This document shows, piece after piece, positions 1,411 through 40,300 of a stretch of DNA of 64,000 nt (position 1 is the stretch's first letter; every line of letters starts with the position of its first letter). The stretch is from a virus. The position numbers and the translations under genes were made by a program. The notes under the pieces are model-generated. The model searched no databases, was not told the origin of the DNA, and was given only the letters and a program-made list of their open reading frames with translations. The stretch is from IMG/VR virus record IMGVR_UViG_3300032220_001630, positions 39,136 through 103,135 of that record; one strand, written 5' to 3'.

Positions 1411-1947
1411 ATGCCCCTTTTAATTGTAGAAGGTCCTAGAAAATCCGGTAAAAGTTACCTAATATCCCAGCAGGATTCTCTTCCAGTTTTTAAGTTTAAC
1501 TTCAATGAGAATTTTGCATACTGGAACTTTGACAAAAATGGTAAAGATGTTCATTGGTTTGGACTGGGAAAAGAAGTTATGCTTCACGAATTGAACAATG
1601 CTGGATTTATTCCAAAGATGATTGTTGACAGGGGTATACTTACAAATTCAGTATGGGGAGTTTTCCAAAAGAGAATAACAGAGGAACAGGCAAAAAAAGA
1701 TCTTGTTAATTTCTATAAAAGAGGACTTTTTAACGATGTAAGTATCTTGCTAATCGAAGGTAATTACAAGAAGGATAGAGTAAAAGATATATGGGATCAA
1801 GACGATGCTAGACAGGATGAAGAAAGACGTCTTTTTTCATCGTTTTCTTTGCTTTTACGAGACTTAGGAGTAGAGGTCAATGTTTTCCATAATAATATGG
1901 ATTTGGACTCCGTAATAAGATTTAAAACAAAAATATCAGAATTATAA
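1411..1947 (+). CDS. P-loop nucleoside-monophosphate (thymidylate-kinase-like) kinase
   Basis: N-terminal LIVEGPRKSGKS Walker A and IVDRGILTNSVW, resembling the DRxxxS motif of dTMP kinases. Confidence 0.65.
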   Translation: MPLLIVEGPRKSGKSYLISQQDSLPVFKFNFNENFAYWNFDKNGKDVHWFGLGKEVMLHELNNAGFIPKMIVDRGILTNSVWGVFQKRITEEQAKKDLVNFYKRGLFNDVSILLIEGNYKKDRVKDIWDQDDARQDEERRLFSSFSLLLRDLGVEVNVFHNNMDLDSVIRFKTKISEL

Positions 1948-1951
1948 AAAC

Positions 1952-3367
1952 ATGTGTGGAATTTTAGTAGCTATTAACCCGACAAAGGAAAGGATAGAAT
2001 CTATATCTCATAGAGGAATAGAACATTCTATTGTAAACGATCAAAATCTATATCTAGTTCATCACAGGCTTCCAATACAAACAGTGGATGGTGATAGCTG
2101 GTCACAGCCTATACAAATTGGCGAAAATAGGTGGCTGTTATTTAATGGCGAGATTTTCAATTATAGTGGCGGATTCGATTCGGATACAGCATACCTTCAA
2201 AATCTATTTAGTAGTTTTAATTTTAGTGGTATTGACATGCTACAAGCTATATACGAACCCCATATAGTTTCATGGGATGGGTTTTGGGCAATAGTTATGG
2301 TAGACACCAAAGAGAAAGAAATATATGCTTTTACTGATCCTTTGGGCAAAAAGGTTTTATACAAGAACGATCTTGGCGAAATCTGCTCAGAAATAAAAGG
2401 ATTATTTGAAAAGGACAATGAACCCGCACCAGATCCATCATTCTTCAGTGGTGTTATAAAGTGGGGATATTTAACCACCGATCAGACACCTTATGAAGGC
2501 ATAAAAAAACTACAACCTAATAGATTTTATAAATGGAATCTCTATAACCCATCAAAAATGGAAGTATCTGATCCATATTATAATTTTTACTCTTTTGAGG
2601 CAGGATTAGAAACATATGAAGATAGAATGGATTGGTTATGGAATAAACTTGAAAATTCAGTAGAATCAAGATTGATCTCTAAAAACTACCCGACATCTCT
2701 TCTGTTATCAGGGGGTTTAGATTCTGCCATTATTGCAGGTCTTCTTCTTAAACTCGGAGCAGATGTTCAGTTTTATTCTATATCCAACGGTGAAGATGAG
2801 CAATACGTAAAAGCATGTGAGGAATATTGGGGTGTTAAATCTATAAGATTAGATTACGATGTTGACATAGAAAGCGAAGAGGGTAAGAATAAAACACTAG
2901 AAATATATCAGAAATGGAATGAATCACCCATAGATATGGGAAGTGTTCTACCTCAATATCATTTATTTGATGCAATAAAAAAAGGATCTAAAACCAGGAT
3001 AGTTATTTCAGGAGATGGAGCTGATGAATTATTTGGAGGATATAGGAGAATTAATGAATACGATTCACAAGATTCAGACATCTTTCACGAATTAACTTCA
3101 TACCATCTACCAAGATTGGACAAGTTATCAATGGCACACACCTTGGAGCTTAGAAGTCCTTTTTTAAATCACGACATAGTAAGATTTGCTTTAACACTTC
3201 CTTTTGAAGAGAGAAAGAATAAAAAAATATTGAAGGATACTTTTAAAGGATTAGTTCCAGATTCAGTAATTGAAAGAAAAAAATTGCCTCTTAAAAATCA
3301 GATGATTGTAGAGGATCAAATTTCTTACAGAAAAAAGATAAAGGATTTATATCTTAAATCCATTTGA
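1952..3367 (+). CDS. asnB: Asparagine synthetase B-like glutamine amidotransferase
   Basis: MCGI (Ntn Cys), HRG, HHRLPI, FNGEIFNY, LLSGGLDS, SGDGADELFGGY, RLDKLSMAHTLELRSPFL. Confidence 0.92.
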   Translation: MCGILVAINPTKERIESISHRGIEHSIVNDQNLYLVHHRLPIQTVDGDSWSQPIQIGENRWLLFNGEIFNYSGGFDSDTAYLQNLFSSFNFSGIDMLQAIYEPHIVSWDGFWAIVMVDTKEKEIYAFTDPLGKKVLYKNDLGEICSEIKGLFEKDNEPAPDPSFFSGVIKWGYLTTDQTPYEGIKKLQPNRFYKWNLYNPSKMEVSDPYYNFYSFEAGLETYEDRMDWLWNKLENSVESRLISKNYPTSLLLSGGLDSAIIAGLLLKLGADVQFYSISNGEDEQYVKACEEYWGVKSIRLDYDVDIESEEGKNKTLEIYQKWNESPIDMGSVLPQYHLFDAIKKGSKTRIVISGDGADELFGGYRRINEYDSQDSDIFHELTSYHLPRLDKLSMAHTLELRSPFLNHDIVRFALTLPFEERKNKKILKDTFKGLVPDSVIERKKLPLKNQMIVEDQISYRKKIKDLYLKSI

Positions 3368-4828
3368 TAAAACTACCTCCACACCCGCAACAGGATCCCC
3401 TTTTGCGTCTTTTGGAGAATATCCGTCTGGTCTATCTGTTAATACGAAATCCTCTGAAGGATCTACTATTAAACCTGCGGAGCTTAGAAAATCTCTATTT
3501 AATAAAAGAGGTGTGCTTTTTTCAGTTCTATCTACTAGTGAAAACTTTACTTTCTTGTAAAGAATACCATTGAATTCAACATCAAGATTAACAACCGCTC
3601 TGTGGTGGATTTTTTCACCAACCTCAGCTTTAGATTGTCCTACGATTTTATTTACAAATTGCTGATTACCTAAAGTCCATACCACTTCTCCGTCTTTTTC
3701 TTCGATAGTATCTGCGTGTAACGAACAAGACGTAGCACCATTACCAGTATCTAATTTTCCTACAAACGTACCAACTCCAGAGATAGATATCAATTCTCTA
3801 AATCCTGTTACTTTCTTAGGCTTAACCCAGTTTTTTCTATCAATTAAGAAATCTACTACAATATCTGTTACTGGTATACCGGTTGTTTTTTCTATCCCCG
3901 TAGTTCCAGGAGATGCGTTAACTTCTAATACGTATGGGTTTTCTGTTCCTTTATCAACAATTATATCAACTCCACACCATAGACAACCTGTAGCTTTAGC
4001 AGATTCAATAGCTATTTTTTCTATCGATTCTGGTAGCTCTACTGTTTCAGTGTCACCACCGAGTGAGAAGTTAGTTCTAAAATCGCCTTTAATCTTAATT
4101 CTTTTCATCGCTGCGATGACTTTGTACTCTCTTCCAGACATACCATCAGATTCAGCAATTACGTGAATTCTTAAGTCATATTCAGCTTCGATTTTTTCTT
4201 GTAAAACTATCTCAGTTCCTGGTGCTAAATGCCATAAAGCTTGAAGAGTAGAAACTAATGATGGTCTCGAATCAATCATGAATACTCCTATACCTTTAGT
4301 TCCTGAAAGAAACTTACATACTACAGGGTATTTTCCACCAACATCTTCAACAGCCTTATCTATATCTGCCTCAGAAGATATTAAAGATGTTTTAGGTACG
4401 GGGATATTATTTAATTGAAGCTTTCTTGTTGTTTGTAATTTATCCTCACATATGATAACAGAATCATAAGAGTTAACACAAGGAAAACCTAAATCTTCCA
4501 TTTTCTTAAAGAATCCCTTAGCAGCATTATTTTTTATGGAAGATCTTCTAGTTAGAACTATTGTACGATCAAGATAAATTTCTTGCTGTTTATCTCCTCT
4601 ACTAGATATAAGATATGTTCCTTTTGGTGTTTTTTGAATAGATCCTTTTTCTGTATCTACTATAATACATTTTAAACCTTTCTCCTCACATATCTTCATT
4701 ATTTTGTCAGTGGTTGGAGCATTCTTTAGGGTCTTACCTAATTTAGTGGTTAGCACAACTACTGTTAAGGGTCTTTCTTTTCCTTTTACCCCTTTGAATA
4801 TAAATTTTTCTAGCAATGGATTATCCAT
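3347..4828 (-). CDS. rimK: RimK-family ATP-grasp ligase fused to a C-terminal retropepsin-like (RimB / 'ATP-dependent Zn protease' family) peptidase
   Basis: ATP-grasp motifs KFLSGTKGIGV, LQEKI, DLRIHV, DFRTNFSLGG, GVDII, LEVNASPG. The C-terminal domain has KLDTGN and LLLNRDFL. Confidence 0.88.
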   Translation of the reverse strand: MDNPLLEKFIFKGVKGKERPLTVVVLTTKLGKTLKNAPTTDKIMKICEEKGLKCIIVDTEKGSIQKTPKGTYLISSRGDKQQEIYLDRTIVLTRRSSIKNNAAKGFFKKMEDLGFPCVNSYDSVIICEDKLQTTRKLQLNNIPVPKTSLISSEADIDKAVEDVGGKYPVVCKFLSGTKGIGVFMIDSRPSLVSTLQALWHLAPGTEIVLQEKIEAEYDLRIHVIAESDGMSGREYKVIAAMKRIKIKGDFRTNFSLGGDTETVELPESIEKIAIESAKATGCLWCGVDIIVDKGTENPYVLEVNASPGTTGIEKTTGIPVTDIVVDFLIDRKNWVKPKKVTGFRELISISGVGTFVGKLDTGNGATSCSLHADTIEEKDGEVVWTLGNQQFVNKIVGQSKAEVGEKIHHRAVVNLDVEFNGILYKKVKFSLVDRTEKSTPLLLNRDFLSSAGLIVDPSEDFVLTDRPDGYSPKDAKGDPVAGVEVVLSNGFKI

Positions 4829-4832
4829 GTTG

Positions 4833-4840
4833 TATATATC
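4833..4840 (-). promoter_or_regulatory. Class I (putative late) promoter motif GATATATA
   Basis: Minus strand reads GATATATA-caac-ATG(4828). Confidence 0.65.
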
Positions 4841-4850
4841 GATATAACAC

Positions 4851-4877
4851 TAAAAAGCCTAGAATAGTCTAGGCTTT
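4851..4877 (-). terminator. Rho-independent terminator after the Glu-rich gene
   Basis: Perfect 10-bp stem AAAGCCTAGA-atag-TCTAGGCTTT, with a U-run on the minus strand. Confidence 0.8.
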
Positions 4878-4897
4878 ATAAATTGTATATTTAAGTT

Positions 4898-5647
4898 TTA
4901 ATTGAAGAACTTATCAAATCTTATAACTCTTTGAGATTCCTCCTCTTTATCTTCCAGATCTGATTCATCCTCTTCCTCAGTATCTTCAGTATCATCTTCT
5001 ATCTCAGTAGTTTGCATAGGGGCTTCATCTGAAATAACCTCGTTATCATCTTCTTCCTCGGTTTCTTCATCTTCATCTTCTTCGTCTTCTTCTTCGTCTT
5101 CTTCATCTTCTTCAGATTCCTCGTCTTCATCTTCATCTTCAGATTCATCGTTCTCTTCCTCGTCTTCAGATTCTGCATCTTCTTCAGATTCCTCGTCCTC
5201 GTCTTCCTCTTCAGGCTCTTCTTCGGTTTCCTCTTCTGATTCTTCTTCAGATTCCTCGTCTTCCTCTTCAGACTCTTCCTCAGTCTCTTCTTCAGATTCC
5301 TCGTCTTCCTCTTCGGACTCTTCCTCAGTTTCTTCGTCTTCCTCTTCGGACTCTTCTTCTGATTCTTCGTCTTCCTCTTCGGACTCTTCTTCTGATTCTT
5401 CCTCAGTCTCTTCTTCAGATTCCTCGTCTTCTTCTTCAGTTTCCTCTTCAGATTCTTCCTCAGTTTCCTCAGTGTTGTCAGATTCTTCTTCAGAACCTTC
5501 CTCCTCTGATTCTTCTTCAGTTTCCTCCTCGTCCTCAGTTTCCTCCTCTTCCTCTATTTCTAGATCTTTCCAGATTTCATTTTCTTCTGGTAATTGGTTG
5601 CTTCTATTAGAGGCAAACTCTTCGAATGATAATATTTTTTTCTCCAT
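4898..5647 (-). CDS. Extremely acidic poly-Glu/Asp low-complexity protein (possible prohead core/internal protein)
   Basis: About 200 aa of EEE[S/T/D] repeats, flanked by KKILSFEEF at the N-terminus and RVIRFDKFFN at the C-terminus. Confidence 0.85.
   Translation of the reverse strand: MEKKILSFEEFASNRSNQLPEENEIWKDLEIEEEEETEDEEETEEESEEEGSEEESDNTEETEEESEEETEEEDEESEEETEEESEEESEEEDEESEEESEEEDEETEEESEEEDEESEEETEEESEEEDEESEEESEEETEEEPEEEDEDEESEEDAESEDEEENDESEDEDEDEESEEDEEDEEEDEEDEDEETEEEDDNEVISDEAPMQTTEIEDDTEDTEEEDESDLEDKEEESQRVIRFDKFFN
4940..5557 (-). repeat. Coding low-complexity tandem repeats (EEES/EEET/EEED units)
   Basis: TCTTC/TCCTC-rich tract including a tandem 33-bp duplication starting at 5331. 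Confidence 0.85.
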
Positions 5648-5653
5648 TTTGTT

Positions 5654-5905
5654 TTATTCTGTTATTCCTATAGCATGAGCACTTCCAGATTCGGTAGCGC
5701 CATATCCAGGATAGTCTATTTTAGATACGCCTTTAAAAACGGAATCTTGGAATCCAACATAAGCATAAGCCTCTTCAGGTGTTATTTTATGTAGTCCAGT
5801 TCTGTCTTCTTTGCTAAGATTTTCAGGATTCCATGGGTCTTGTGCGACTTTCATAAAATCCTTATAGCTAAGAATTTCTCTCTTTTTTATGTTCTTTTGG
5901 TTCAT
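5654..5905 (-). CDS. Small hypothetical protein with ILSYKDFM motif
   Basis: 83-aa ORF packed tightly between co-oriented genes. Confidence 0.75.
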   Translation of the reverse strand: MNQKNIKKREILSYKDFMKVAQDPWNPENLSKEDRTGLHKITPEEAYAYVGFQDSVFKGVSKIDYPGYGATESGSAHAIGITE

Positions 5906-5919
5906 TTTAATTACTTCTT

Positions 5920-6627
5920 TTAGAATTGTAGGATATTAGATAATCCGGTTTTCATGGCCTTAGCAAAAATGTTAGGGTCATTAGTTTCCGCTTTTTCTAT
6001 TTCTGATGATAATTTTTGTTTGTCTCCTTGAGTAATGTTACCAGATAAAACGTCACCTAGACTAAATCCACATATTTTATCTCCTATCATTTTCTCTACG
6101 TTATTCATGAAGTTAGTATTGTTTATAGCATTAGTTAAAGCTTCTCTTAATCCTGCTGATATAGTACCACCCATACCTGTATTCATGTCAATTTTTAATC
6201 CTAGTTTAGGTAATAAATATTCTACTCCTCTCTCTTGCAATGTTTCAGATAATCCCTCTACTATTGCTCTTGCCCAATTTTTACAAGATCCTTTACCAAA
6301 ATAACTTCCCAACTCGGTTATACTTACTCCTTCTATTACGTTTCTTATAAGTTGGTAAAAGAATGTTGGCTGGTTTTGTTCATCGTAAGGTTCTATACCT
6401 AATTTTTGTGCTGCCCAGTCGATAACATAATCTTTAAAGGTATCAGTAAAACCTCCACCTAAAGATCCAAGTAAAGATGAAAAAATGTTTTCGTTTATTT
6501 CTTGCTCTGATAGACCCTCTCCCTTCATTCTCAAATACTCATTCTCGAGTATAGCTATTTGATCTTTTGAACCATTATTTCTAGGTGTTGCCGACTCAGA
6601 AACAAACTGTGAATATCTGTATATCAT
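5920..6627 (-). CDS. Putative head-internal/ejected protein
   Basis: N-terminal MIYRYSQFVSE, then EINE followed by amphipathic NIFSSLLGSLGGG. Class I motif upstream. Confidence 0.7.
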   Translation of the reverse strand: MIYRYSQFVSESATPRNNGSKDQIAILENEYLRMKGEGLSEQEINENIFSSLLGSLGGGFTDTFKDYVIDWAAQKLGIEPYDEQNQPTFFYQLIRNVIEGVSITELGSYFGKGSCKNWARAIVEGLSETLQERGVEYLLPKLGLKIDMNTGMGGTISAGLREALTNAINNTNFMNNVEKMIGDKICGFSLGDVLSGNITQGDKQKLSSEIEKAETNDPNIFAKAMKTGLSNILQF

Positions 6628-6645
6628 TCCCGTTTACTTTTCTTA

Positions 6646-6680
6646 TATATATCATTTTACTATCTAAATTCTGATATATA
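6646..6680. promoter_or_regulatory. Back-to-back divergent class I GATATATA motifs
   Basis: TATATATC at 6646-6653 serves the minus-strand gene at 6627; GATATATA at 6673-6680 serves the plus-strand gene at 6688. Confidence 0.65.
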
Positions 6681-6687
6681 AGGAGAA

Positions 6688-7098
6688 ATGTCTAGAATAC
6701 TAAAAATTGACGATTTTGAAAAATCATTCCCTACCAAATATGGTTTGGATGCTGATGGATCTTGTTACGAGATAGAATCTCCATTTGATATAATGATAAT
6801 TGTAGATTATGAAGATTTAGACGGGCAGATTGATACTAAATACAAATCACCAAAATGGGAAAAGTTTAAAACTAGCAAGGGTGATGTTATACTGTGTAGT
6901 AAAAACGGATCTTTTATATTTCCAAAAGACAAAGAAGGATTCGTAGAATGCACACCAGTAAAAGATTCAAATCAACAAGATATTAGTTTTGATACATTTC
7001 CAAAAAATTCTTTAAAGAAAATAGGAAAGGATCTTTTTAGAATGCACTCTATGCCTTTCGAGGAAAGAAAAAAAATGACCATCTTTAACGGGCTATGA
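6688..7098 (+). CDS. Hypothetical protein
   Basis: 136-aa ORF with AGGAG upstream. N-terminus is MSRILKIDDF. Confidence 0.8.
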   Translation: MSRILKIDDFEKSFPTKYGLDADGSCYEIESPFDIMIIVDYEDLDGQIDTKYKSPKWEKFKTSKGDVILCSKNGSFIFPKDKEGFVECTPVKDSNQQDISFDTFPKNSLKKIGKDLFRMHSMPFEERKKMTIFNGL

Positions 7099-7649
7099 AA
7101 AATTTAAAGAATTTCAAAAATTTTATTATCAATGAGAGTTCTGCTGCAGGAAACAGAGAACATACTTACGATACTCCATTCTCTTACACCTCAAACGATC
7201 CAAAATTTGGATACAACAGTAAAAGCTTTGTAGACGACCTTAAAGCTCTTTTTGTAGAGAAACCTTCTCTGAAAGGAGAAATTACTGAATTTCTTGTTCA
7301 AAATACAGGGATATCAAGAGTTGAGGATTTAGCTTTAAAGCCTTTTGCATTAATAAAAGAGATAATTCCTGAAATAGAAAGAATAATAGCTGCTGGAGAA
7401 TATGAGCCAGAACTTATTATGCCTGGTGGTGCTTTACTGTTTATAAGAAATAAAATACTAGACAACGGAAAAGGAGCTGATTTCTATATAAACAGGAAAG
7501 GAACTAAAATAGAAGTTGTTACTGACGATTTTAACGGGGAAGAAAAAGTATTATTCTACAATTCTAAAAATTTCCCGTACGATAGGTATGATTTCACACA
7601 AGAGGAAAAAGAAGAACTTCAATCAATTATAAAAGCAAAGGGAGCTTAA
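7095..7649 (+). CDS. Putative head-internal protein with capsid-targeting-like N-terminus
   Basis: Starts MKNLKNFKNFIINE; ATGA overlap with the upstream gene. Confidence 0.75.
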   Translation: MKNLKNFKNFIINESSAAGNREHTYDTPFSYTSNDPKFGYNSKSFVDDLKALFVEKPSLKGEITEFLVQNTGISRVEDLALKPFALIKEIIPEIERIIAAGEYEPELIMPGGALLFIRNKILDNGKGADFYINRKGTKIEVVTDDFNGEEKVLFYNSKNFPYDRYDFTQEEKEELQSIIKAKGA

Positions 7650-8356
7650 TTATTATTAAAATTTTTAAGTATAAGCTCTATAGATTTTTCTTTTCCTATT
7701 TCGGTTCCTGTTTCTAGATCGACACCTTTAGCAACATCCGCAATAATAACACAATCAAATTTATCTGAGAAATCTTTTATATTGGTCTTCAAAAATCTTC
7801 TTATTTTAATAATCTCAGTGGTTGTTTCGCATTTAGGATCTAACATTTCTGTCATAAGAAGTGCTACTTTTTCATCATCCCCTATCTTAACAACAGAAAA
7901 GAACCAGCTAAATACTTTCATATATTCCTCTTCGGTTTTTCTTACTACCAAAAATCCCTGATCCCAAAGATTGTATCTGGTACAATAGCTTTCAACATCA
8001 ACTAGTGAATTATATTTAAAAGACACCTCTTTATTCTCCTCCATAAATTTATCTATGGTTTCTATGGAGTTTTTAACTATCGTCTCTATTTCGCCGATCA
8101 GATCTAAGTTTTTATCTAGTAAGTTGTAGAAAATATTTTTATCTACGTCGGTCATATTTGCAAGGGTCCTTTGACTAAACTCTGTTTTTTTATCAAAACT
8201 CTCAAGATCTCTCTTAAGTATTAATACCTCTTTAAAGTGTTTCTCAAATCCCTTTTTATTAAAATTATTTTTTGCCTTCGTTAGTAAATCCATCAAAACA
8301 TAATATTTATGCTCTACATCTATAGGGGATTCGAGAAACCAATATGGCTTTATCAT
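7646..8356 (-). CDS. Hypothetical protein resembling a conserved Bacteroidota family
   Basis: N-terminal WFLESPIDVEHKYYVL resembles the W-x4-IDFE-x-K-x-Y-x-LL start of a Bacteroidota hypothetical family (from recollection, not searched). Confidence 0.7.
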   Translation of the reverse strand: MIKPYWFLESPIDVEHKYYVLMDLLTKAKNNFNKKGFEKHFKEVLILKRDLESFDKKTEFSQRTLANMTDVDKNIFYNLLDKNLDLIGEIETIVKNSIETIDKFMEENKEVSFKYNSLVDVESYCTRYNLWDQGFLVVRKTEEEYMKVFSWFFSVVKIGDDEKVALLMTEMLDPKCETTTEIIKIRRFLKTNIKDFSDKFDCVIIADVAKGVDLETGTEIGKEKSIELILKNFNNN

Positions 8357-8439
8357 TATCTTGTATTATTCTGTATCTATAACTTATATATAGAACAAAA
8401 TGTTTTATTCCGGTTGTAGAAAAAAATTTTTCTATATGT

Positions 8440-8468
8440 GAAACTTATCTCCGAACAGGGACTAAAAT
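8440..8468 (+). promoter_or_regulatory. Class II promoter-like motif heading the glycan operon
   Basis: GAAAC-N18-TAAAAT. Confidence 0.55.
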
Positions 8469-8517
8469 TTTTACGTAGTAAATCCCGGACTATGAATCAT
8501 ATAATATAGTATTACTT

Positions 8518-9141
8518 ATGTGCCCCCAATTCTTAGTTATCGCTTACTATACTGAAAACACTTCCTACCAAGACTTAGCTGAAAAATTAAAAAATTCGCT
8601 TCAAAGGTTTGGTTTACCCCATTACATAGAACCTATCAAAGATCAAGGCTCATGGGAAAAGAATACACACTACAAAGCTTATTTTATTAAGAAATGTCTA
8701 AATGACAGAAATCTAGATCTTCTCTACGTAGATGTAGATGCAGTGTTTAAAGCGTATCCTAGCTTAATCGATGGCTTAGATTGTGACATTGCATACAGAA
8801 CCCAAGATTTTAGATGGAGAAAAGATGAGGCCTTATCTGGTACTATCTTTCTAAAGAACAATGACAAGGTAAAGAGGTTAGTTGATAGGTGGATAGAGAT
8901 TAACGAAAAGACTCCTGCTGAAAGAATGAAACCTGAGACCTGGGAGCAAAAAAATATGCAAACCGCACATAGAGAATTCTCCGATGTGGTTTATTATAAT
9001 CTACCACCAGAATATACTTTTATATTTGATCACTCAAGAACAATGTATCCTAAGGCTTCTCCTGTAATAGAGCATTACCAAGAATCTAGAAATGTACATC
9101 GAAATAATTTACAATCTCGAGGTATAATTAGAAAAAGATAG
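8518..9141 (+). CDS. GT-A nucleotide-diphospho-sugar transferase
   Basis: WEKNTHYKAYFI, LYVDVDA (DxD), SGTIFL, EQ, LPPEY, VIEHYQ. Confidence 0.8.
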   Translation: MCPQFLVIAYYTENTSYQDLAEKLKNSLQRFGLPHYIEPIKDQGSWEKNTHYKAYFIKKCLNDRNLDLLYVDVDAVFKAYPSLIDGLDCDIAYRTQDFRWRKDEALSGTIFLKNNDKVKRLVDRWIEINEKTPAERMKPETWEQKNMQTAHREFSDVVYYNLPPEYTFIFDHSRTMYPKASPVIEHYQESRNVHRNNLQSRGIIRKR

Positions 9142-9874: not shown

Positions 9875-10512
9875 CAAATCTCCCTATATTTATATCCTAT
9901 CATACTGGGGATTCTTATTATTCCTCCTGTGCAGAAAATCTTGTATCTAATATAAGATCTTTAGGCGGTGAGATAATAATGGAGAAAGTTACAGATACTG
10001 GATATTACTGGAAGAATACTTTAAAAAAGCCTGGGTTCATACTTTCTAAAATGGATGAACTAAAAAGAGATCTAATTTGGATAGATGCAGATACCAATAT
10101 TTTTGGATATACAGATTGTATGAAAAAATGGGAATCCGATATACTATTTGCATCCCATACCGGAGACATCCATGGTATAAAGGCATCTCCTATGGGTATA
10201 AAGTACAGTGAAAAAACACTGGGATTCTTTAAAAAATTTTCAGATTTGTGTAATCATAAAATAGAATCCAATGAATTGGATTTAGATCACGACGTTTTAA
10301 AGTATGAATTACTTCCTGATTACAAGGAGAAGATCAGTTTAGAAATTTTAGGTTGTGAAGGAGTACCATCGGATTACACAGACGGGAAATATATAAGAAA
10401 TGGAATTTCCAGAGGAATTAATAAAGGAAGAGAGGTTCATTCTGTCACTTTAAAAAATTCTACTAGAGATCTAAAATTTAGAATGCTATCTTTAAATGAC
10501 TTCACAATATGA
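9871..10512 (+). CDS. GT-A nucleotide-diphospho-sugar transferase
   Basis: YWKNTLKKPGFI, IWIDAD, LDHDVLK. Confidence 0.75.
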   Translation: MTNLPIFISYHTGDSYYSSCAENLVSNIRSLGGEIIMEKVTDTGYYWKNTLKKPGFILSKMDELKRDLIWIDADTNIFGYTDCMKKWESDILFASHTGDIHGIKASPMGIKYSEKTLGFFKKFSDLCNHKIESNELDLDHDVLKYELLPDYKEKISLEILGCEGVPSDYTDGKYIRNGISRGINKGREVHSVTLKNSTRDLKFRMLSLNDFTI

Positions 10513-37344: not shown

Positions 37345-40300
37345 ATGGCAACAGAAGATAGCATAGGAAGTAAGATAGATCAACTATTAGGTAAAGATTT
37401 TGAAAAATTAACTACCGATGAAATAGTTCAGACTATAATGGGGGAAAAAATAGATATCCCCTATGAGGATTTACAGTCTGAAGATGGATTCAATAAACAA
37501 CTTGAAATTGCAGACAAAGAGGTTGAAGCATTAGTTAAAGGCTTAGAACCAAAAAGTCCACCTATTCCTATGTCCAAAATAGAGGATCTCTCGTGTAAAT
37601 TTGAGGGCGATTCTCTTTATGCACAGATATTAATAGAGAGCATTAAGAAGGATAAATCTGATTTATATTTAGAACTAAAGAAATCTGGTGCCCTTGATGA
37701 AAAAACAATAACACCGGATGATCTTGGTATAAAAAGTTCTATTCCTTCATTAAAGAACGACAGAGAAATAACATCTTCTGGTATAATCAAATTTCTAGAG
37801 AATAATGATCCTTCATTTCTGGACGAAACAAACGAAAGAATTTTTGATAATTTAGACCCACTTTTGGTTGGGAAACCTTCAAACTCTGGATCTAGAAAGA
37901 AAAGAGAATTAAATATACTAGGATTTAAAATTCCTTTGGAATTTATAATGTCTGGTAAAAAAATAGTGCATGTTAAAATATCTGGACCTAAACTCAGCAA
38001 TAAGGAAGCTATAGATAAAATAAATCAAACATTAAGCGAGCAATACAAAAATAGCAAGCCGTGTGATTTTGATGGACTTGACGAAGCATCACAGGATACA
38101 GATAATGGAAATCAAGGGATCCCAGAAACTACAAGGATAGACGACTATGATTCCAATTTTTATCCTGAGGGAGATGATCCGATATTAGACCAAGATTGTG
38201 CACCAGGACTTCCCGAAGATCCTATAACAGGGGATGTCATATTAACAAAAGATGCTTTTGATGATTCTAAAGATGATTTTTGTGATCCTCCAGCTTATGA
38301 TTTTTCAGGATTAAATCCTGACGAACCTGATCCTGAAGCACCTCCAGTGGACGTGGATGCTATCCAAGCTTGTATAGATTCAGCTCTAGAAAAAGCTGAT
38401 AAGATAGACAACAATAGCAAGCTTTTAGGTAGATGGTCAATGATAGAAAAAAATCTCGAGGAGATATTGTATCACTATGAGATAATATGGGAATATCAAA
38501 GAAATTTTACTGAAAAATTTAGGAGTAGAGTTTCATTTAATGATTCAGGTAATCCAACTTCTCCTCAGGCAATAATACAGGCACTAACCTATGATGATCA
38601 ATCTAAGGAGCTAAATCTTCAAATAACAAAATCCCAAACTCTTCTCGATAACGATAAAAATATTTTTCTTCAAAACAATCCTATTTTTACTAGCTCCCTG
38701 TTCAATCTCACAGTTTTAGATTTAGAAGATATAAGTAATTACACACAACAGGAGGGATATAGTTTTATTCAAGATTATATTGATTCTGGGAATTCGATAA
38801 TACAATATGATGATGCGAAAAAGGATTGGCCAATTTCGGATGGTTATACTGAACTTGTCAATAATATACCAGACATAAGAGAGATTATAATTAAGGGAAA
38901 TTTTTTAGATGCTCTAAAAGAACAAAGACAAGAGGTTATTAATCAGAGAAAAACCAATCTAGATTTCTTATCCGATCAAAAAGGTCAAATTGTTACAATA
39001 GATAATATAGATCAGGTTATATCCTCTGCCGTTTACGGACAGGAAATAACCAATGATTCATTTAGAAGAGTATTTGAAAACATATATTCGCCTGGTGGAT
39101 ATGATTCTTATGGATACGATTTTATAAATTCATTAAAGAAATTCTCTGTTAGATTTAAAAATACTTCAGTTGATTCTTCAGATAGCGAATTAAAATTTGA
39201 GGTTTCTTTTATGGATAATTTTGGCCTTCCACTTCCATATAAGAGCACTAAGAAGCCAGGAAAAATATCAATGAAGGGATCTTCTTCAGAGCCTTTAAAA
39301 GAAGTTTCTGAACCTGATACTGAAAAGATAAAGATAGGTAACGAATTTGCAAACAATGGCGGATTGCTATCCAGTTATCCCAAGGACATTTTTAAAAGTT
39401 CTAGCTTTCTAAAGGTGAACAATCTAAAAGATGGACAGACTGATGTCGGAAAATTTTATGATTTCATAGAGAAGATAATTAAAACAAATGATAGTAAAAC
39501 ATCTATCATAAATTATATAAAAACAGAAAGAGGAATTTTATATGGTGAGTTAATTGAAAAATCTGGATCTAACTGGCTATTTTTTAATCCTGAAGAAAGA
39601 GGTGATAATGATGCTAGAGATCCTTCTAAATTAAGGCCATCTAGTTTTACTACCGACGGAGAGCCAAATGAAATCTTCTCAGATTTTTACGGTAACTTCA
39701 AACCTAAATGGGATACCAAATATCAGCAGAATAAATCTTCTTATATAGAACCAGAGATAGCATCTTTAAAAGCTAAAGCATTAAAAGCTGCAGAAGGAGC
39801 TGCAGCCACCGCGAATATTTCAGATTTTATTGCCCTTAGAATTTATAGAAACTATTTTGATATAAAATCGAAGATGGATCAAATAGAAGAAATTCTTCTA
39901 TTTGCTGCACAGAAAAGACAGGAGATACAAGATGGGCTTAGTCCTGAAGCTTTAGAAAAAGAATTCTCTGATATTAAATGTGCTGGAGCTTCCAACGGAG
40001 CAGCTGAACCAGGAGGTAATGACCCAGAAAATTGTCCACCTCCTTGCTGTGGTCCTGCAGGATCAGATTTTAAATCTGGTGGAAATTATTTATTATCTTC
40101 CCCACCAAGTTCAGATTGTCCTACTATATTTCAAAGATGTTGGTGGAAACAATTTTGTAAAGATGTTACTAAGGTTGGACTTCTTCCCTACCCTAACGGA
40201 TTACCCCCGATAGAAAATACTTCCTATTTTTTATCTGCTGGTCCATCAGTTAGACTTGGATTAAAATACTGGCCAGTTGGCTACCTTCCTCCTGCTTTTA

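Follow-up and report, generated by a model that had tools for sequence, protein, structure and literature searches.

A 64,000-nucleotide stretch of viral DNA (IMG/VR record IMGVR_UViG_3300032220_001630, positions 39,136 to 103,135; hereafter the window) encodes on its minus strand a 493-residue protein in which two catalytic modules are joined. The open reading frame (ORF) at 3347-4828 is a full RimK-family ATP-grasp ligase followed by a C-terminal RimB/PF05618 retropepsin-like domain. The 103-kb record that holds the window is judged to be only 36% complete, and the phage, which comes from a lake, is therefore a jumbo phage. The fusion represents a large, previously uncharacterised phage family that is often found in T4-like and jumbo phages of aquatic origin. 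In the reading that we favour, tentatively and at somewhat less than an even chance, the protein is made late, packaged in the phage head and delivered as a RimK-RimB enzyme that likely acts on the ribosomal protein bS6 of the host or makes poly-glutamate (poly-Glu), and the strongly acidic protein encoded next to it is a fellow tagged head protein. The parts of the fusion gene are as follows.

3347 to 4828, minus strand: fusion gene, RimK-type alpha-L-glutamate ligase plus RimB-like retropepsin, 493 residues, with the leader first and a short C-terminal extension last
4772 to 4828, minus strand: N-terminal leader, residues 1-19, MDNPLLEKFIFKGVKGKER, without counterpart in bacterial RimK; a degenerate tag resembling a capsid-targeting sequence (CTS)
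3827 to 4771, minus strand: RimK ATP-grasp region, residues about 20-334, from profile matches, invariant residues and the structural model
3434 to 3826, minus strand: RimB/PF05618-like retropepsin domain, residues about 335-465, from profile matches
3740 to 3751, minus strand: codons of the catalytic DTG motif, D360-T361-G362-N363, from the sequence and the alignment of relatives

The ligase region is matched by PF08443 (RimK) over residues 128-325 (5e-37; 127.8 bits against a cut-off of 21) and by TIGR00768 over residues 39-326 (152.6 bits, above the cut-off of 143.4). Across 32 diverse relatives, K172, G176/G179/G181, D288, E302 and N304 are invariant and align with their RimK equivalents; the lysine, the Gly-rich loop and the metal triad D288/E302/N304 are the ATP/Mg residues. 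An AlphaFold (AF2) model of the fusion has a predicted local distance difference test (pLDDT) score of 86.8 and is placed by Foldseek on Pseudomonas RimK 7qys with a template-modelling (TM) score of 0.87 (E 2e-23), and for a profile of 14 family sequences the best matches among solved structures are the RimK proteins of Pseudomonas and E. coli (7qyr, 9e-49; 4iwx, 2e-44). The family profile also matches the solved PF05618 structures 9g59 (7e-11), 9g58 (1e-9) and 2pma (8.5e-8). The window protein itself scores 25.7 bits against PF05618, slightly under the cut-off of 27, which its relatives pass (e.g., L055, 43.7 bits), and the RloA3 retropepsin model also matches its C-terminal part just under threshold. 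The DTGN motif, which lies in KLDTGNG, is likewise invariant across 32 diverse relatives. A first-pass annotation of the stretch had proposed that a RimK ATP-grasp domain is fused here to a DTG retropepsin, and the TIGR00768 score, the ATP/Mg residues and the conserved DTGN all bear this out.

In a scan of IMG/VR, at least 593 contigs encode a relative of the fusion, and the full-length proteins fall into 254 clusters with identity down to about 42%. Cultured carriers are Pelagibacter phage Mosig, where the protein is labelled "glutathione synthetase", and Yersinia phage YerA41, where gp066 is labelled "structural protein"; these labels and "F420 ligase" are frequent mis-annotations of the family. 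A megablast of the locus against cultured phages gave no match. In an exhaustive search with the protease domain, the nearest relatives all carry it at about residues 330-490 of proteins of about 450-510 residues, and this RimK-then-RimB order suggests that the phage fusion is independent of the bacterial hybrid RimBK, in which RimB sits at the N-terminus of RimK and which occurs mainly in Flavobacteriales and Rhodobacterales (PMC11957791). Proteins of about 500 residues with an N-terminal PF05618 domain were considered as RimBK and rejected, as no RimK domain was found in them.

The family also varies in architecture. Longer members reach 753-1160 residues, and those of L054 (1785-5264), L055 (5281-7557) and L059 have an N-terminal extension of 300-700 residues ahead of RimK and PF05618; this extension contains FGRFNPPTSGHELL, which resembles a nucleotidyltransferase motif, and has no Pfam match at E < 1e-4. 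Some carriers hold a second paralogue that is RimK-only. A split form occurs in L065, where a 592-residue RimK protein without DTG (5944-7719) is followed by a separate 314-residue protease (7963-8904) with a PF05618 domain and a clear tag of its own, the leader MKRIKTYEEFIN. The RimK-like protein of phage Melnitz (350 residues) has the leader and lacks the protease domain, and cyanophage RimK (297 residues) has neither.

Packaging of the fusion is suggested by the leader. Phage fusions exceed bacterial RimK by about 26 N-terminal residues, and in the model of the fusion residues 1-16 are disordered (pLDDT < 50). In phage T4, the prohead protease gp21 cuts the capsid-targeting sequence off after a glutamate. 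The T4 record gives MKTYQEFIAEA as the start of the internal proteins IPII and IPIII, and this is the T4 capsid-targeting sequence (PMC3012670). Against it stand the core forms FITEAK or FLNEAK in most members of the fusion family, and most family leaders include a (I/L/V)xE↓(A/S) protease site; examples across the 80 loci are MEQFKSFITEAK, MKVPSFNEFISEAV, VLDFSSFLNEAK and MRLREFINES. The pattern F/Y-h-x(1,2)-E-[ASNGQ], tested within the first 30 residues, is present in 48 of 81 fusions as against 79 of 1192 flanking ORFs, and many of those 79 are evidently further tagged proteins.

Genes beside the fusion in very different phages also start with the tag (MKFKQYLSEKK, MRLENYLNEG, MKLLNFDSFINES). 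Small, unrelated flanking ORFs that begin M(K/R)hxx(Y/F)hxE were seen at L022, L046, L050, L053, L058, L060, L062, L067 and other loci. To judge from their sequences, the tagged ORFs that flank the fusion look like hypervariable islands, the pattern of T4-type internal-protein loci. In the window's genome the genes of tagged proteins are grouped beside the head genes, between about -14 kb and +7.6 kb in window coordinates. A gp21-type prohead protease (Peptidase_S77) is encoded in the same genome (G000:C1:32131-32502, 42 bits) and in all five other carrier genomes tested, that is, four complete IMG/VR genomes and YerA41, and the record of Mosig lists a protein annotated as prohead core scaffold and protease. 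The fusion is thus probably packaged in the head, with the window's copy having only a degenerate form of the leader.

Timing is read from two elements between the fusion and the operon upstream of it.

4833 to 4840, minus strand: promoter-like motif GATATATA, 4 nucleotides (nt) before the fusion ATG, position conserved
4854 to 4877, minus strand: intrinsic-terminator-like hairpin at the end of the upstream operon, pairing kept in relatives

The hairpin has an equivalent in relatives in which pairing is preserved and the stem sequences differ. Together, the hairpin (4877-4854) and GATATATA (4840-4833) agree with the first-pass annotation in making the fusion a separate transcription unit with a late-type motif of its own. 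Taken by itself, the 8-mer occurs in the window no more often than expected (7 occurrences against 7.4), so the evidential value of the motif lies only in where it stands with respect to start codons and in its conservation. TATATA-N4-ATG is enriched in the window, with 7 occurrences against 2.0 +/- 1.3 expected, a number reached in 0 of 100 shuffles. Ahead of the fusion, members of the close clade keep the motif at a distance of 4 to about 20 nt from the ATG, and a second clade, whose genomic context is unrelated, has conserved it there as well. In the window's genome, (G/A)ATATATA also precedes the first portal ORF, the protease-domain ORF and other large ORFs of the structural region, and its presence before the portal and protease genes makes GATATATA probably a late promoter. 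Late-type expression of the fusion is probable from this association of the motif with head genes. The sites at which (G/A)ATATATA lies 4-19 nt before an ATG are 13355, 32083, 9358 and 21119 in the genome (G000) and 6627 (minus strand), 6688, 43746, 46114 and 57193 in the window; several of the gaps are just 4-7 nt, so that the mRNAs would have no leader or almost none.

The proposed mechanism joins these elements. Residues of about 20-334 would act as a RimK-type ligase that adds alpha-linked glutamate (Glu) to a C-terminal Glu or synthesises poly-alpha-Glu, and residues of about 335-465 as a RimB-type, retropepsin-like endopeptidase of the kind that cuts poly-Glu tracts. Made late, the fusion would be recruited into the prohead core by its leader and, by analogy with T4 Alt, be delivered into the next host with the DNA; the phages that carry the family have, where checked, a T4-type (gp21-like) prohead protease. 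In the host it would most likely lengthen and trim the acidic C-terminal tail of bS6, or make poly-Glu, and host bS6 or free glutamate is the most economical choice of a common target for the family. The protein bS6 is the one RimK protein substrate present in every host.

Fusion-bearing phages seem to collect proteins of the 30S platform. Mosig (L087) encodes ribosomal protein S21 at 9932-10141, about 5 kb from its fusion, and the window's phage presumably has a copy of S1. In Bacteroidia, bS6, bS18 and bS21 jointly sequester the anti-Shine-Dalgarno sequence (PMC7797042). This role of the three proteins, together with the phage-borne ribosomal proteins, makes the ribosome an attractive candidate target. 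A more specific version of the mechanism, possible yet doubtful, is that of a capsid-packaged effector which is injected with the DNA and rewrites the poly-Glu tail of host bS6 within seconds, and which in this lineage may also polyglutamylate a prohead core protein with an S6-like -SEE tail.

If the leader works as it does in T4, these phages would bring an already synthesised enzyme that modifies ribosomes into the cell as they inject; it would represent a new class of ejected effectors, and this, if true, would offer a handle on why they also carry ribosomal proteins (e.g., S21 in Mosig). The family also yields a testable list of natural RimK and RimB substrates and a large, diverse set of leaders for the study of T4-type head packaging.

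Five observations weigh against a packaged, bS6-directed enzyme. The fusion scores 103 bits with the S6-ligase equivalog NF007764, far under its cut-off of 331, and the score therefore does not establish that it has the substrate of E. coli RimK. In bacterial RimBK the protease is active, yet no glutamylation of Pseudomonas RpsF was seen in vitro (PMC11957791). The window leader (MDNPLLEKFIFKG) keeps a hydrophobic face in LLEKFIFKG and has lost the Glu-Ala cleavage site, so that it is a degenerate tag and the case for packaging is weaker for the window's clade. Mosig-like phages have the fusion between regA and the DNA polymerase, in the replication module, with no visible late motif. Finally, the one pointer to the protein being in the virion, the "structural protein" label of YerA41 gp066, presumably rests on particle mass spectrometry (PMC7354516); the 63 proteins listed there include polymerases and helicases, and in the YerA41 record even the alpha subunit of ribonucleotide reductase is marked as a particle component. 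Detection in such a list is therefore weak evidence.

Two of these points, the degenerate window leader and the replication-module contexts, which are found in many phages, would suit an ordinary late auxiliary gene whose product stays unpackaged in the cytoplasm, where it modifies bS6 or makes free poly-alpha-Glu, the N-terminal motif having some other role. The untagged RimK-only genes of cyanophages, annotated as S6 modification enzymes, point the same way. We nevertheless regard this account as unlikely, since it requires a coincidence of three things: the close resemblance between the leader and the T4 CTS, protease site included, the same leader on unrelated neighbours, and a gp21-type protease in every carrier tested.

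Other alternatives assign the fusion a substrate within the phage head, the nearest at hand being the acidic protein encoded in the upstream operon.

4898 to 5647, minus strand: acidic protein, 249 residues, 67% aspartate plus glutamate (D+E), EEE[S/T/D] repeats, CTS-like motif at both ends
5654 to 5905, minus strand: 83-residue tagged protein (REILSYKDF), ending ...GITE, co-transcribed with the acidic gene
5920 to 6627, minus strand: 235-residue tagged protein (MIYRYSQFVSE↓S), first gene of the operon, with GATATATA at 6646-6653 (minus strand)

The acidic protein is much as it had first been described, lying upstream on the same strand with tags at both ends: KKILSFEEF at the N-terminus and VIRFDKFFN at the C-terminus, both kept in relatives. 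Profile searches gave it no family match. Clustering of the flanking genes of the 80 fusion loci resolved three main contexts. Group A (the window and L004-L013) comprises tagged genes, the acidic ORF, the fusion, an asparagine-synthase-like (AsnB-like) gene and a P-loop gene. In group B (about 20 loci), topoisomerase II, half of a DNA polymerase B and two small ORFs precede the fusion, beyond which lie an ORF of 60-83 residues, an acidic ORF on the opposite strand and a tagged 104-residue ORF. Group C, the Mosig-like loci, has the order gp45, gp44, regA, fusion, DNA polymerase, and the acidic ORF is absent.

That the fusion acts on this neighbour, either trimming or degrading a disposable acidic scaffold or DNA mimic in the prohead or extending it after cleavage, has several observations in its favour, and we still consider it rather improbable. 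Two clades whose gene neighbourhoods are otherwise unrelated both have a tagged acidic ORF beside the fusion, in differing orientations, with no acidic ORF elsewhere within the +/-6 kb flanks of the fusion. The C-terminal RV(L/I)xFxDFF common to the acidic ORFs of groups A and B makes them one family that lies near the fusion in two contexts, which is real evidence of linkage. Both the fusion and the operon of the acidic gene are preceded by GATATATA. RimB is moreover able to cut internal poly-Glu: the Pseudomonas enzyme can cut an internal E8 linker and stimulates poly-alpha-Glu synthesis by RimK (PMC11957791). It is a retropepsin-like endopeptidase, and the tract that it cuts has to contain about six contiguous Glu or more (Little et al. 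2025, PMC11957791).

The acidic ORFs seldom offer such tracts. The longest Glu run is 5 in the window's acidic protein and 2-5 in group B, where Glu content is 18-34%; runs of at least 6 occur in just 4 of 27 acidic ORFs (at most 5 in the other 23), and the D:E ratio drifts. None of the acidic ORFs ends in Glu, so as translated they are not RimK-type acceptors. An acidic ORF is adjacent or nearly so in about 26-28 of the 80 loci, which leaves about two thirds without one, and no separate polyacid gene exists anywhere in the complete genomes of Mosig, YerA41 and Melnitz. The sole long D/E run of YerA41 (L096), at about 85.4 kb, lies within the N-terminal part of the DNA polymerase gene. In L009/L010, an inversion has carried the acidic gene and its two upstream genes as a block, while the fusion stayed put.

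On these counts the first-pass claim of a dedicated poly-Glu writer and eraser paired with an encoded poly-Glu substrate finds little support, in view of the fraction of loci, the short Glu runs and the lack of Glu ends. The synteny is real in so far as two contexts share the acidic family, but it is limited to about a third of the loci and lacking from three complete genomes. The acidic gene would lie beside the fusion because genes with the same T4-CTS-like tag cluster in islands, and this clustering accounts for the adjacency. In T4, the prohead core protein gp67 has a C-terminal stretch of 36 residues that is almost pure D/E, a precedent for an encoded polyacid in a T4-type head core without RimK, and by this analogy the acidic neighbour is probably another tagged head-internal or core protein. 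For the small acidic ORF of group B (C-terminal ...FxDFF), a gp33-like late co-activator or clamp binder was considered and rejected: it has no Pfam or PHROG match and bears little likeness to T4 gp33 (...TNTLDFLL, 20% acidic).

It is similarly improbable, in our estimate, that the fusion adds poly-Glu to the Glu-terminated tails of head proteins inside the prohead. The enzyme shares motif and tag with the head proteins, that is, it would be co-expressed and co-tagged with them, and there are candidate acceptors: an 867-residue protein in the core position, the 83-residue tagged protein ending in ITE, and Glu ends that gp21-type xE↓ cuts would generate. The 867-residue ORF lies directly upstream of the prohead-protease ORF (G000:C1:29457-32060, or -9678 to -7075 in window coordinates and thus outside the window; L098:458-3058 is listed with it). 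Its tail, ...EAGESEE, resembles the ...EAGDSEE of E. coli S6, and 37 of 54 homologues end in EE while the preceding residues vary. The 83-residue family (window 5654-5905, minus strand, and L004-L013) ends in (I/L/V)TE, and the L006 homologue has five extra residues after LTE, as if a gp21-type cut made the Glu end.

Against this, the EE tail is absent from distant homologues of the 867-residue protein in phages that still carry the fusion, the 867-residue family is missing from the other fusion clades, and the Mosig head module shows no such tail. An acceptor role for head proteins would thus be lineage-specific at best. The EAGESEE tail was rejected as a universal acceptor, since it is conserved in the close sub-clade only, and the 867-residue protein is a candidate RimK acceptor for its lineage, not the common substrate of the family. 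The first-pass annotation had also pointed to several proteins ending in Glu as possible acceptors; such ends do exist, but only at chance level (9 of 100 ORFs in the window's genome against 7.3 expected), and an enrichment of Glu-terminated proteins is rejected.

The fusion is flanked on its other side by the AsnB-like gene of group A.

1952 to 3367, plus strand: asparagine-synthase-like amidotransferase (AsnB-like; GATase and Asn_synthase domains), 471 residues, convergent with the fusion gene, whose 3' end it overlaps by 21 nt on the opposite strand

This gene and that of a 178-residue P-loop protein (together 1411-3367, plus strand) keep their place beside the fusion only within the close clade. 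Their presence, a second-best NCBIfam match to MptN (135.5 bits) and the thymidine hypermodification of about 1 kDa in YerA41 could be taken to indicate that the enzyme, like the RimK relatives MptN and CofF, joins glutamate to a small molecule, for example to a cofactor or in the hypermodification of DNA or nucleotides, but this is very improbable, given that the MptN score is far under its cut-off of 350 bits, that the YerA41 modification appears to be an oligosaccharide, and that the conserved fusion to a peptide-cutting retropepsin with intact DTG argues for peptide substrates.

Of the two options that had been offered for the fusion at the outset, trimming or recycling an acidic scaffold or DNA mimic during packaging and glutamylating ribosomal or virion proteins, the second is now the better one, and it is with the favoured reading, a packaged and delivered RimK-RimB enzyme, that known systems are best compared.

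The Pseudomonas RimABK system (PMC4741518, PMC7343187, PMC11957791) contains the same two catalytic modules as the phage fusion. Pseudomonas RimK (7qyr, 7qys) provides the nearest solved structures to the phage ATP-grasp, and the RimB domains of both have the DTG. In the phages, the modules form one polypeptide without a RimA partner, to which an N-terminal leader and a late-type promoter motif are added. The bacterial RimBK (e.g., DP2392 of Desulfotalea psychrophila), common in aquatic bacteria, resembles the phage fusion in being a single chain of RimB and RimK, whereas the domain order of the phage protein is reversed, with RimB C-terminal (residues 335-465), and a CTS-like leader is added. 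What is new here is a reverse-order and apparently independent RimK-RimB fusion, frequent among the T4-like and jumbo phages of aquatic habitats. To our knowledge, work on how RimK and RimB control ribosome glutamylation has been confined to bacteria until now, and a fused RimBK was first described in 2025. The cyanophage "ribosomal protein S6 glutaminyl transferase" (phrog_2599) and the Melnitz protein are, like the fusion, RimK-family ligases of phages.

Among head proteins, T4 gp67, the precursor of an acidic internal peptide, has an encoded poly-D/E tract as does the window's acidic protein, which differs in having no homology to gp67, in being three times longer and rich in Glu, in its EEE[S/T/D] period, and in its tags at the two ends. 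The T4 proteins IPI, IPII, IPIII and Alt have a leader of the MKTYQEFIAE↓A type with a gp21-type site, like most members of the fusion family, and T4 internal-protein genes are hypervariable and clustered, like the tagged genes around the fusion. In contrast to the T4 proteins, packaging of the phage fusion is predicted from its sequence, and the leader in the window is degenerate. We know of no RimK- or RimB-type enzyme among the T4 internal proteins. T4 Alt is an enzyme that enters the cell together with the DNA and modifies the machinery of the host, and a packaged effector that rewrites bS6 would, if true, be its translational counterpart and the first phage-delivered protein glutamylase/deglutamylase.

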